64,000 nt of DNA. Source: Candidatus Thorarchaeota archaeon. Its GTDB lineage: Archaea > Asgardarchaeota > Thorarchaeia > Thorarchaeales > Thorarchaeaceae. The notes beneath the pieces are model-generated. The model was not told the origin of the DNA and made no database searches. It saw only the letters and a list, made by a program, of their open reading frames with translations. Location: positions 32,001 to 96,000 of the forward strand of contig RDOC01000003.1 of NCBI GenBank assembly GCA_011364985.1, read 5' to 3'. The stretch's first letter is position 1; each line of letters starts with the position of its first letter. The position numbers were made by a program, and so were the translations under genes. Below are positions 23,596-26,541 of the stretch, piece after piece.

Positions 23596-26541
23596 TTACA
23601 TGTAGAATCTATAATGTCCTTGAACTTCTTTTCCTTCAGGAATCTCAGAAAGAACAGCTCCTACTTTTTCTGGGAATATTATCGTTATTGGCAACTTATC
23701 TCCAAAACTAGATGTATTCCAATTGATTTTTGTCAGCTTTAAAATCTCACTCGCAACAAAATCCATCTCTGAGTCACAATCGAGATCAAGTAGTAGTGGT
23801 CTCGGAACTCTTGGACCTGGATAAGTCCTCAATCTAGGTATGTAACCTGAAGTGTACAGAAGACATTGTTTCTCATTTATTTTTATCATCGTTCCTCTTA
23901 ACACTGGATATTTACCAGTTCTTACAAAGCGGAAACCATGTACCCGTCCAATACTAATAAAATCAGCAGAAGCTCGACCTATAGCATTGAGAAATCCTTG
24001 ACGTTCATCAGAGTTGAATCTGGATAATTTATGTATGACCACTCTTGCAGGCTTTGTTCTTGATTTGAGCGTATAGGTTTCAATTGCTCTGTTAAGTAGG
24101 TCAAATGCGCTATCCTTTTGAAGATGAACCTCTTTTGATTTTTTGTCAACTTCTACCTTTGCCCCTTGGAGCACAAAACCGTCACCGCTATGGGTAAAGA
24201 CCTGCGCCATTGACGCCTTTAAATTGCCTAAAGGGTCATCTCTCCTCGAATAAAATGCAATTCCAACATAACAAGTATCCTGTTCTAGTTTTGCTAGTCT
24301 CCATGGTTTCCCATTTGCCTTGTAATACATGGCAGTAGAGAAATTCCAACTAAATGTCGCTGGATTTTGAACCAAGTCTGCTCTTCGTGGATAATCTAAT
24401 ATTGCTCTACCATTTCTTTCGATTAGCAATTGCACAGGAATTCCATAATCCATCACAGCTCCCTTAATTGCATCATGCAAATCAAAACTTCGAAGGTCTG
24501 GTTCTGCAAAATCGAAATCAACAAGTGTGGTCTGCCCTTCCTCTTTGGCCTTAGCGAAATCTTTCTCCTCTTTAGTATATCGAGGCCTTTTGGCCCATCT
24601 GGTTTTTTTACTTATTCCACAATAATCATCAATTGCATCTGGAACTATACACAATATCACATCCGGACGGTTATCTTCTATTGCAATTGATTTCACTTTG
24701 TCATGATACAACTCAACTGCAGCATGAATACGTTCGTGAACACTTTGTATTGAAATGATTCTATCGACCTCTGATTGCGTTATTGTTTCGTTCCAAGAAT
24801 TTGAGTACTTGAACTGGCAGTTAACAGGTGAATCAGTATTAAAACCAGGATAACTAGGAAACAAGAATTTATTTTCACTTGGGCAGGCAATTTCCTGACC
24901 TAGCAAATCTATGATGTTTTTTGCAACTTCGCGTCCAGATCCAGTACCAATTATACCTAATCTGACTTGACCAATAGGCTCTTCATCTTTGGCATGATAC
25001 GGTCCAAAATACTTCAGTCCAATTCTCGGGTCTTCCTCTTCCCTCTGCCCTCCAAAAAGTAGTTTTGGTTCTTCGATAAACTGTGACTTGAATTCTGTAC
25101 CTACACTCTCCCTATCAAATGCTAGAGGCCCTTCTTTTTGTTCCTTTGCAGGTGTATCTCCATCAATCCCTATATCCATATACGCACGAATGAATTCTGA
25201 AGAGATGGTGATTCGATTTTCAGTGAGAATCTCACCATTTTCATCTTCAGTTATTACTTGACCAAATACAATATGTCCGAATTCATCTTTAGGTAGTTTT
25301 GACCTCCAGAATTTCAAATCGTTATGATAGCTACTGTTGTATCTAAGTCTAAGGAGTCTGGTTATTGCAGTCCCGTCAATTAGATTATGTACAGGAGTTA
25401 CACCATCATTTGTTAGTACAATACTAGGTTCGACTTTCAGATAATATTGATTATTTATCCATTGAAACTGCAGTGACACTGACCAATGCCGCCATCTATA
25501 TGATGTCACTTGACTCACGTAGAATTTCCTTACAACTTTGCGGGGCTTTCGGGAACTTCCATCTCCCCACCCTTCGTAGCATACCTCGTCCTTACAGGTA
25601 TAGAAAAGAGCACGAGGTCGTGATTCTGAATCAAGAACCATTCTTTTCTTCTTCATTGCTGCAGTTGCTTCAATGTTAAGAAGATGGGTTATTAGGTTCC
25701 TCCCATCATCACTTTGAACTAGTATTTCAGTATCTATCTTTTCTTGGCTATCTGGAACAATGTAGTCTTGAAGCTTATGCTCATCAAACCTACAAAATGA
25801 ATGAAGACGCCTACCCTGTTTTGTAAATGGTTTATCACCTGTTCTAGAAAGTGGAAAATCATCAGTTTCAATTCGGACGGTATAGACAGTTTTTGGTATT
25901 TCTAAAACTTTCAGTAAATTGCCAAAAATGACCTCTTCTACTTGGTCGGGCCTACCAGTTAACAAGGACATTCGATGTTGATCTAGCTTTATTCTTTTCT
26001 CAATCTCTCTATGCTCTTTATCATTGGCTACAATACTTTGAGTGCCTCGTCTTGTCAGAACATCGTTCCTTCTGAAAGCATACTTTCTCTTTCCATCTTT
26101 TATGTAAATTCCATCCTTAATCGGTTTTAGAACTGACGTTGAAGGGGGAACATAAACTACAGCAAATTGTTTTGCTAATATCACACCCTTTTCTTCAACA
26201 TGTCTTTCAAATAATCTAAAACCTAATTCGATCTTTTCAGAACTAAAGGAATTGAATTTTTCTTGGAGCTGTGCTTGATCAATCTGTATCCTTTCATCTA
26301 AGCCGACAGGAATGATTTTCTTTTTCTTATCCAAAAATCCAAAGAGAATCCAACCTGAGCCTTTGTTTGCCATAGCAAAGATGTGTTTCGCAAGTTTCGC
26401 AAAATCGGATTGCTGAGATATATCTATGGTGAGTTTGAAATCAATGTGTGGTTCCTCAGACATTTTATCCCAGATTAGATCTAACATTAAATCTCCTAAT
26501 GGATCAGGATGAATCTCATTATCTCCATGAATAACTACCAT
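23596..26541 (-). CDS. Schlafen/AlbA_2-APAZ-short prokaryotic Argonaute fusion (inactive PIWI)
   Basis: EEPHIDFK...FAMANKGSGWILFG (AlbA_2); EVIFGNLL...WRHWSVS...EPSIVLTNDG (APAZ-like); IEEPKLLFGG..DPRIGLKYFGP, YYKANGKPWRL, CYVGIAFY, VVIHK, TKINWN (MID-PIWI). Confidence 0.88.
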   Translation of the reverse strand: MVVIHGDNEIHPDPLGDLMLDLIWDKMSEEPHIDFKLTIDISQQSDFAKLAKHIFAMANKGSGWILFGFLDKKKKIIPVGLDERIQIDQAQLQEKFNSFSSEKIELGFRLFERHVEEKGVILAKQFAVVYVPPSTSVLKPIKDGIYIKDGKRKYAFRRNDVLTRRGTQSIVANDKEHREIEKRIKLDQHRMSLLTGRPDQVEEVIFGNLLKVLEIPKTVYTVRIETDDFPLSRTGDKPFTKQGRRLHSFCRFDEHKLQDYIVPDSQEKIDTEILVQSDDGRNLITHLLNIEATAAMKKKRMVLDSESRPRALFYTCKDEVCYEGWGDGSSRKPRKVVRKFYVSQVTSYRWRHWSVSLQFQWINNQYYLKVEPSIVLTNDGVTPVHNLIDGTAITRLLRLRYNSSYHNDLKFWRSKLPKDEFGHIVFGQVITEDENGEILTENRITISSEFIRAYMDIGIDGDTPAKEQKEGPLAFDRESVGTEFKSQFIEEPKLLFGGQREEEDPRIGLKYFGPYHAKDEEPIGQVRLGIIGTGSGREVAKNIIDLLGQEIACPSENKFLFPSYPGFNTDSPVNCQFKYSNSWNETITQSEVDRIISIQSVHERIHAAVELYHDKVKSIAIEDNRPDVILCIVPDAIDDYCGISKKTRWAKRPRYTKEEKDFAKAKEEGQTTLVDFDFAEPDLRSFDLHDAIKGAVMDYGIPVQLLIERNGRAILDYPRRADLVQNPATFSWNFSTAMYYKANGKPWRLAKLEQDTCYVGIAFYSRRDDPLGNLKASMAQVFTHSGDGFVLQGAKVEVDKKSKEVHLQKDSAFDLLNRAIETYTLKSRTKPARVVIHKLSRFNSDERQGFLNAIGRASADFISIGRVHGFRFVRTGKYPVLRGTMIKINEKQCLLYTSGYIPRLRTYPGPRVPRPLLLDLDCDSEMDFVASEILKLTKINWNTSSFGDKLPITIIFPEKVGAVLSEIPEGKEVQGHYRFYM

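Follow-up and report, generated by a model that had tools for sequence, protein, structure and literature searches.

Several described systems resemble the gene reported here. RzAgo of Runella zeae joins a Schlafen (SLFN) domain to a prokaryotic Argonaute (pAgo), uses an RNA guide against a DNA target, cleaves tRNA and acts through abortive infection (bioRxiv 10.64898/2026.05.29.728809). The introduction of bioRxiv 10.1101/2023.07.12.548734 names Schlafen/Alba-APAZ proteins as partners of short pAgos, and PMC13462974 (its cluster 6) and Fig. 1e of the RzAgo preprint list operons of SLFN-APAZ with a short pAgo, but none of these three listings reports an experiment. In the present work, a stretch of 64,000 nucleotides (nt) of a Candidatus Thorarchaeota archaeon (GenBank assembly GCA_011364985.1, contig RDOC01000003.1, positions 32,001 to 96,000; hereafter the window) was analysed for a gene at 23596-26541 (minus strand), which encodes a Schlafen/AlbA_2 domain, an APAZ domain and a short pAgo with MID and inactive PIWI domains in one chain of 981 amino acids (aa). 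A preliminary description, made from the letters of this DNA alone, had proposed this layout for a stand-alone abortive-infection Argonaute. The gene is confirmed to be real and intact, and so is the reading of its domains. By analogy with the characterised systems, the protein is rather probably a stand-alone, single-polypeptide short Argonaute whose target-activated cleavage of tRNA would lead to abortive infection.

The gene and its domains

The open reading frame (ORF) comprises 981 codons on the minus strand, from an ATG at 26541 to a TAA ending at 23596; the preliminary description had given these positions and no strand. A Logan contig, perhaps from the source sample, matches positions 16851-26692 with 0 differences, and 18 database homologues (918-1032 aa, 35-56% identity over 94-100% of the query length) have the same one-chain layout; the fusion is therefore no assembly artefact. 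The G+C content (GC) of the gene is 38.2% (28.8% at third codon positions), compared with 46-47% in the neighbouring core genes, so that its described AT-richness stands. In genome windows of equal size the mean GC is 45.5%, and only 0.3% of them are as low as the Argonaute gene. A TATA-like run, read by eye at 26560-26575 (minus strand), lies about 25-27 nt 5′ of the ATG and would suit a leaderless archaeal transcript. A scan for bacterial promoters, which is ill-suited to an archaeon, remained at chance level. The AlphaFold model of the protein has a mean predicted local distance difference test score (pLDDT) of 80.5 and a predicted TM-score of 0.75.

The Schlafen/AlbA_2 domain occupies aa ~18-190 (25972-26490, minus strand) according to Pfam, profile and structure searches, and carries the motif E29-x4-D34-x-K36 together with a SAFAN-type box (A56-N59, G63, G68). 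The Pfam family SLFN_AlbA_2 (PF04326) matches aa 29-155 above the cut-off (E 2.1e-11). In detail, E29, D34, K36 and N59 are invariant in 34/34 aligned homologues, the mean column identity being 44%, and the triad motif is also kept in 56/56 further two-gene SLFN-APAZ partners. A profile built from the 34 homologues found rat SLFN8, CbCash, SLFN14 and SLFN11 in the PDB (E 3e-8 to 2e-4). In a structure search with the AlphaFold model, this region aligned to 3lmm over 141 residues (Z 11.5, root-mean-square deviation 3.1), to the AlbA_2 domain of SAMD9 (Z 10.1) and to the C-lobes of SLFN12 (Z 8.0) and SLFN11 (Z 7.9), which bears out the Schlafen fold that had been read from the N-terminus. The same triad is required for tRNA cleavage in RorSlfn5 (E15, D20; PMC13056530), in CbCash (E17, D22, K24; PMC13462974) and in RzAgo (D32; bioRxiv 10.64898/2026.05.29.728809). 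Judged by its residues, the Schlafen nuclease triad of the 981-aa protein is intact, and nuclease activity is predicted.

The APAZ domain follows at aa ~196-465 (25147-25956, minus strand) and is equivalent to the N, L1 and L2 parts, with no PAZ. The PADLOC Aga models PNTD1-PNTD2, which represent APAZ, match aa ~180-420 with a best E of 2.5e-20. Profile matches were obtained with the HNH-APAZ protein of SPARHA (9om4_A, E 1.7e-35), with DREN-APAZ (E 4.3e-15) and with TIR-APAZ (E 5.7e-5), and the corresponding region of the model aligned to 9qbl_C (Z 17.9) and 9jsb_D (Z 13.2) in the structure search. Neither a PAZ nor an ATPase domain was found in the Pfam scan of the protein. There is also no room for PAZ or a GHKL ATPase, since APAZ begins at about aa 196, six residues past the end of the SLFN region, and in profile searches the stretch N-terminal of MID is wholly covered by SLFN and APAZ. 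The APAZ-like middle of the preliminary description is thus retained. A 14-residue acidic hairpin insertion within APAZ (aa ~421-435, 25237-25281, minus strand) occurs solely in the 981-aa protein among 19 aligned sequences.

The short pAgo, MID with an inactive PIWI, forms the C-terminal half (aa 484-981; 23599-25092, minus strand), as seen by PADLOC, PDB and structure searches and by alignment. PADLOC pAgo_I matches it throughout (E 1.3e-141). The best PDB matches of this half are all short pAgos, with NbaAgo at E 4e-64 compared with E 1e-4 for the long-B RsAgo. Similarly, the structure search gave Z 35.8 to a short pAgo versus 24.9 to RsAgo, and the TM-score of the model to the SPARDA pAgo is 0.86 (by target). 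All three domains are thereby recovered by comparisons made domain by domain. The Pfam family Piwi (PF02171) gives no match on the 981-aa protein or its relatives, and surveys based on Pfam alone would therefore miss the Argonaute half.

Replacement of the catalytic aspartates, also claimed at the outset, was found at A762 and L839, which stand in place of the first and third Asp, whereas Asgard long Argonautes retain these aspartates. Across 45 sequences, S/A is found at 762 and T/S/K/L at 839 in all 45; the residue at the fourth position (E958) varies. Judged from the first, third and fourth positions of the alignment, the DEDX tetrad of PIWI is absent. The residues of the 5′-phosphate pocket are kept: K693, Q704, K741 and D687 are invariant in 45/45 sequences, with R/H at 689 (H689 here) in 43. 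These correspond to H207/K211/Q222/K263 of CrtAgo, matched by spacing, and to D178/R180/K184 of AcaAgo, so by residue correspondence the guide pocket of MID is intact. An insertion of ~55 aa in MID (aa ~635-685, 24487-24639, minus strand) contains a basic stretch and a Cys-Gly-Ile motif in which C641 is invariant in 45/45. Its length, about 55-63 aa, is similar in TIR-type relatives, against 25-34 aa in the sampled DUF4365- and HNH-type loci.

Two-gene and fused relatives

In GTDB genomes, 32 loci have an SLFN domain adjoining a related pAgo; 28 are two-gene loci (SLFN-APAZ, then pAgo) and four encode one chain. Their hosts are Thorarchaeota, Bathyarchaeota, Thermoplasmatota, Nanoarchaeota/Woesearchaeota, Micrarchaeota, ANME-1, Methanoperedens and Nitrososphaerota. 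One SLFN-pAgo record is labelled Gammaproteobacteria, yet it groups with Nitrosopumilus in the tree. The SLFN-APAZ-pAgo family is thus almost wholly archaeal, and its spread over many archaeal phyla led to the rejection of an Asgard-specific family. The gene had been regarded as notable for an Asgard archaeon; the host is indeed Asgard, but incidentally so, in a family of mostly two-gene loci. Protein searches added 56 SLFN-APAZ partners (439-506 aa), all with the triad motif; clustering at 50% left 42 more SLFN-APAZ and two more fused representatives. Fused genes stand, for instance, on JBHIAE010000084.1, JAUVHR010000111.1, JACAEL010000028.1 and QYYE01000016.1.

In the pAgo phylogeny, the SLFN-linked pAgos form one clade (SH-like approximate likelihood ratio test, SH-aLRT, 99-100), except for three divergent loci (L025, L068 and L075). 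The 981-aa protein belongs to a subclade of eight fused proteins (support 100), whose named members are all from Thorarchaeota and in which its fused relatives, at 46-57% identity, have the same layout. The fused state requires 4-5 changes on the tree, of which at least 2-3 are forced by strong branches, the fusions in single metagenomes being taken from assemblies and not from reads. A single origin was rejected, since one fused clade received p = 6e-7 in the approximately unbiased test (on a quick tree with near-duplicates left out). Repeated fusion is the simpler reading because every outgroup is split, as are the SLFN loci that branch deepest, and some fission may have happened besides.

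Related pAgo scaffolds carry TIR, HTH-TIR, HNH or DUF4365 in the N-terminal place. This is an indication that the place is an exchangeable effector slot. The nearest relatives of the SLFN clade are of the TIR type in trees built without reference S2A sequences, and the APAZ profile is nearer to SPARHA and SPARDA than to SPARTA. Archaeal operons of TIR-APAZ and a short pAgo, with a scaffold near the SLFN clade, were observed in Nitrosopumilus and Bathyarchaeia (L050, 5500-6921; L062, 5659-6921). An SLFN-APAZ of Thermoplasmata (L022, 5305-7389) has ~240 additional N-terminal residues with no Pfam match. In a Micrarchaeota locus (L048, 7374-8982), SLFN-APAZ is whole and the pAgo gene is fragmented, with a tRNA-Glu directly upstream.

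Between APAZ and MID, the fused chain has a low-confidence linker (aa ~463-483; 25093-25155, minus strand; pLDDT <50 at aa 463-480), located at the place of the free, mostly acidic C-tail of APAZ in two-gene forms. In SPARTA, this acidic tail obstructs the guide channel. The two-gene members of the GTDB set end in a tail with a median of 25 aa and a net charge of -8 (n = 23); in the two-gene database set, which is nearer to the 981-aa protein, the median charge is -3 (n = 42). Fused members have a 20-aa linker with a median charge of about +1 (-2 in the 981-aa protein). By its reading frame, the fused chain certainly has no free APAZ tail. The change of the tail need not stem from the fusion, because tails are already weak (-2 to -4) in the split relatives closest to the Thorarchaeota clade.

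A full or nearly full fused gene is present in 6/86 genomes of the host family, many of them incomplete, distributed over five genera. The same family has a two-gene APAZ and short pAgo locus (L121/L132; G087:C2:109546-111928), in which the 525-aa partner frame has no SLFN match.

The tRNA-Gly island

The gene is located in a 14.2-kb island (12514-26694) between the native ends of a tRNA-Gly(TCC) gene. The left boundary of the island is the native 5′ 17 nt of this tRNA (12514-12530, plus strand), with the same letters as the 5′ end of the tRNA in relatives. The right boundary is its native 3′ end (26665-26694, plus strand), which adjoins the stop codon of Nep1 and whose 30 nt are the same as in the intact tRNA that six relatives have at this place. 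An intact tRNA-Gly(TCC) stands directly beside Nep1 in 12/12 genomes of the same genus, where the island is missing, and topoisomerase IB is located just upstream of it in 9/9 regions of same-genus genomes. In the middle of the island there is an intact tRNA-Gly(TCC) (16803-16877, plus strand), an allele unlike both native ends, with cassettes on either side.

A diverged 3′ remnant of tRNA-Gly (23540-23581, plus strand; 81% identity with the intact tRNA in 42 nt) lies 14 nt from the stop codon of the Argonaute gene and bounds its cassette on the left; it differs from the right-hand remnant by two mismatches in 30 nt. The preliminary description had placed a one-gene cassette between two tRNA-Gly 3′ remnants. 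The gene is the only long ORF there, but the right-hand remnant is the native 3′ end of the tRNA, bounding cassette and island alike. Given the usual order of integration, the Argonaute cassette, with its one long ORF, is probably the oldest of the right-hand ones. Since the corresponding sites of relatives are empty, the cassette with this gene was acquired horizontally at tRNA-Gly(TCC). A same-genus genome (G011, the source of locus L001) carries a homologue at another place, and its tRNA-Gly site is empty. No integrase was found in the island, and no tyrosine integrase in the genome, which is 74% complete (G000). A joint of 12528 to 26662 in run X1 (depth 3) was left unused, as it shows other tRNA letters and most likely belongs to the tRNA of another organism; nor were contig depths relied on, which do not give copy numbers.

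A fixed link of the family to tRNA genes was rejected, as ARAGORN found tRNAs in 2/40 loci, neither of them for Gly; a tRNA 3′ remnant occurs at one further locus. Across 38 loci, no conserved neighbour gene was found beyond close kin, which led to the rejection of conserved accessory genes and agrees with the stand-alone character described at first. Several relatives adjoin restriction-modification, AAA_15+DUF4435 and toxin-antitoxin genes. Two Thorarchaeota loci (L001, 4898-8465; L006, 2-2760) share an unannotated pair of genes (~215 aa and 700-970 aa) on different sides of the fused gene.

The rest of the island contains an N4/N6 DNA methyltransferase (PF01555) followed by a putative endonuclease of 169 aa (13016-14877, plus strand), and a 447-aa ORF with no Pfam match (14983-16326, minus strand), in which a CxxC pair and a nuclease-like C-terminus were read by eye. 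A 560-aa TnpB/Cas12f-like protein (17010-18692, minus strand; PF07282 E 9e-12, PADLOC Cas12f E 5e-19; GC 57.5%) has no adjoining transposase. Head to head with its gene, a 1525-aa ORF (18942-23519, plus strand; GC 53.7%) gave no Pfam, PADLOC or Atlas match and shows, by eye, a PD-(D/E)XK-like motif near aa 380-415.

Proposed function and comparison with known systems

In the proposed mechanism, APAZ and MID-PIWI would fold as a bilobed short-pAgo scaffold, as in the predicted model. The MID pocket would hold a 5′-phosphorylated small guide, most likely RNA by comparison with SPARTA, SPARDA and SPARHA, and the guide would pair with invader DNA, the presumed target, which PIWI would leave uncut. 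The duplex may then promote pAgo-pAgo oligomerisation into a tetramer or filament, and the single-lobe SLFN domains thus brought together could form the working nuclease. Host tRNA would be cut by the metal-binding E29/D34/K36 with no need of an ATPase, the assembly and the substrate being modelled on RzAgo, CbCash and RorSlfn5. Translation would halt, and the virus or plasmid would be lost along with the cell.

This mechanism is favoured on account of the effector slot, the order and folds of the domains, the invariant triad, the kept pocket, the inactive PIWI and the lack of a conserved neighbour. The patchy spread, the low GC, the position in an island and the defence-type neighbours of relatives were also counted for it. 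Four points weigh on the other side. The literature searched gave no experiment on any member with SLFN-APAZ and a short pAgo, split or fused. RzAgo, the sole characterised Schlafen-Argonaute, needs its GHKL ATPase for assembly; this is missing here, and a route of activation like that of other short pAgos must hence be assumed. Sequence does not reveal the substrate, and CbCash also cuts 16S rRNA in vitro. Finally, all tested models are bacterial, and archaea could differ from them in how guides are supplied and tRNAs modified.

A more specific proposal is put forward tentatively, with doubt prevailing: a one-gene, ATP-independent programmable sensor, converting DNA recognition into tRNA cleavage, which archaea derived from the two-gene operon on several occasions and whose off/on switching is new for short pAgos. 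The switching is perhaps new because the fused form has no free acidic APAZ tail of the SPARTA kind. On this proposal, the protein would be the first short pAgo with a mechanism of the RNase type, and also the first Schlafen immune effector of archaea (Asgard) with demonstrated function.

The same sensor-effector switch might instead direct the Schlafen domain mainly against rRNA, mRNA or nucleic acids broadly, in the manner of SPARDA and SPARHA. The nearest solved scaffolds are indeed collateral nucleases, and mammalian SLFNs cleave tRNA or rRNA, to which the in vitro activity of CbCash on 16S rRNA may be added; since the three tested prokaryotic Schlafens considered here (RorSlfn5, CbCash and RzAgo) all cut tRNA, this explanation is rather unlikely. 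Improbable to a greater degree is a local, non-lethal action, in which the Schlafen domain produces its own guides or cuts transcripts beside the target, the invader is silenced and the cell survives. A covalent RNase next to the guide pocket would suit guide production, the fusion recurred several times, and regulation may differ in a chain with no free acidic tail. However, the majority of members are two-gene operons, laid out with effector and APAZ as in abortive-infection systems, and SLFN occupies the slot held by TIR, HNH or DUF4365 in relatives.

The gene could also be an inactive passenger, intact in appearance yet silent or mis-regulated, in an island that has lost its mobility genes. 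The missing integrases and the diverged boundaries of the cassette would fit, but the 2.9-kb frame is open, all triad and pocket residues are kept, and the clade of eight fused proteins preserves one layout, which makes a passenger very improbable. Mere binding of nucleic acid by AlbA_2, with interference by binding or by a recruited host nuclease, follows the naming of PF04326 as a DNA-binding domain in older surveys (bioRxiv 10.1101/366930) and is hardly to be expected, as a strictly conserved acidic/lysine triad is hard to explain without catalysis.

Should the favoured mechanism of target-activated tRNA cleavage be true, a tRNA-cutting output would join those of short Argonautes, which so far are NADases and broad nucleases. 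Argonaute and Schlafen, both used in animal immunity, would have been joined at least twice, in a long-B form with an ATPase and in a short form with none. Since no other member is as easy to express as an intact single gene, the SLFN-APAZ class becomes directly testable, and the effect of fusion on auto-inhibition can be examined cleanly in split and fused forms that are closely related, such as L004 with P0010 or L021 with P0019. The gene has no bearing on the origin of eukaryotic RNA interference, because it encodes a short-clade protein, horizontally spread over many archaeal phyla.

Among the known systems, RzAgo shares with the 981-aa protein the single polypeptide, the N-terminal single-lobe SLFN domain with E-x4-(D/E)-x-K and a SAFAN box, the inactive PIWI and the lack of a conserved partner. 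RzAgo, however, is a long-B Argonaute of 1071-1187 aa with PAZ and a GHKL ATPase, and it tetramerises on ATP, whereas the 981-aa protein is of the short clade, with APAZ and with neither PAZ nor ATPase. As these two defining features are missing, it is not a member of the RzAgo type; it is a joining of Schlafen and Argonaute independent of RzAgo. By analogy, its output is probably like that of RzAgo, which serves as the best functional model. In RorSlfn5 (PMC13056530) and CbCash (PMC13462974, PDB 9ylu), the same nuclease domain and triad are fused to a sensor and cleave tRNA, but an Ig-like or Csx15 domain, not an Argonaute, serves as the sensor.

The nearest solved scaffold is that of clade S2B, namely SPARHA (HNH-APAZ, PDB 9om4; PMC12738770) and SPARDA (DREN-APAZ, PDB 9jsb and 9qbp), with pAgo Z 35-36, ~30% identity and the same pocket residues. 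It differs in having HNH or DREN in place of Schlafen, in being unfused and in its shorter MID insertion. Compared with SPARTA, SPARSA, SPARDA and SPARHA together, the effector slot holds PF04326 and not TIR, SIR2, DREN or HNH. SPARSA-A (SIR2-APAZ-pAgo, clade S1A; PMC9097488) is a precedent for an effector, APAZ and pAgo in one chain, and rarer fusions with TIR and DUF4365 effectors are known (bioRxiv 10.1101/2023.06.08.544223). SPARSA-A is unlike the present protein in its NADase effector and its distant pAgo clade (22-30% local identity, on a long separate branch).

The preliminary description had considered the architecture uncharacterised. No description of a single-chain SLFN-APAZ-short pAgo was found in literature text (including PMC9097488, PMC12738770, PMC13056530, PMC11291487 and PMC11217426; figures and supplements were outside the scope), although the category of Alba2 pAgos lacking GHKL in the RzAgo preprint could contain it. 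The claim stands in that respect, but the pairing had been listed and the RzAgo fusion (long-B, with GHKL) had been characterised. With precedents for both pairing and mechanism, the gene is less surprising than first held. The two-gene SLFN-APAZ and short pAgo loci agree with the 981-aa protein in the three domains and their order, belong to the same pAgo clade (SH-aLRT 99-100) and share 30-39% identity with it over the full SLFN-APAZ half. The 981-aa protein differs from them in being one chain, in which a near-neutral linker replaces the free APAZ C-tail. The single-chain gene is thus a fusion variant of a catalogued two-gene class of short pAgos.

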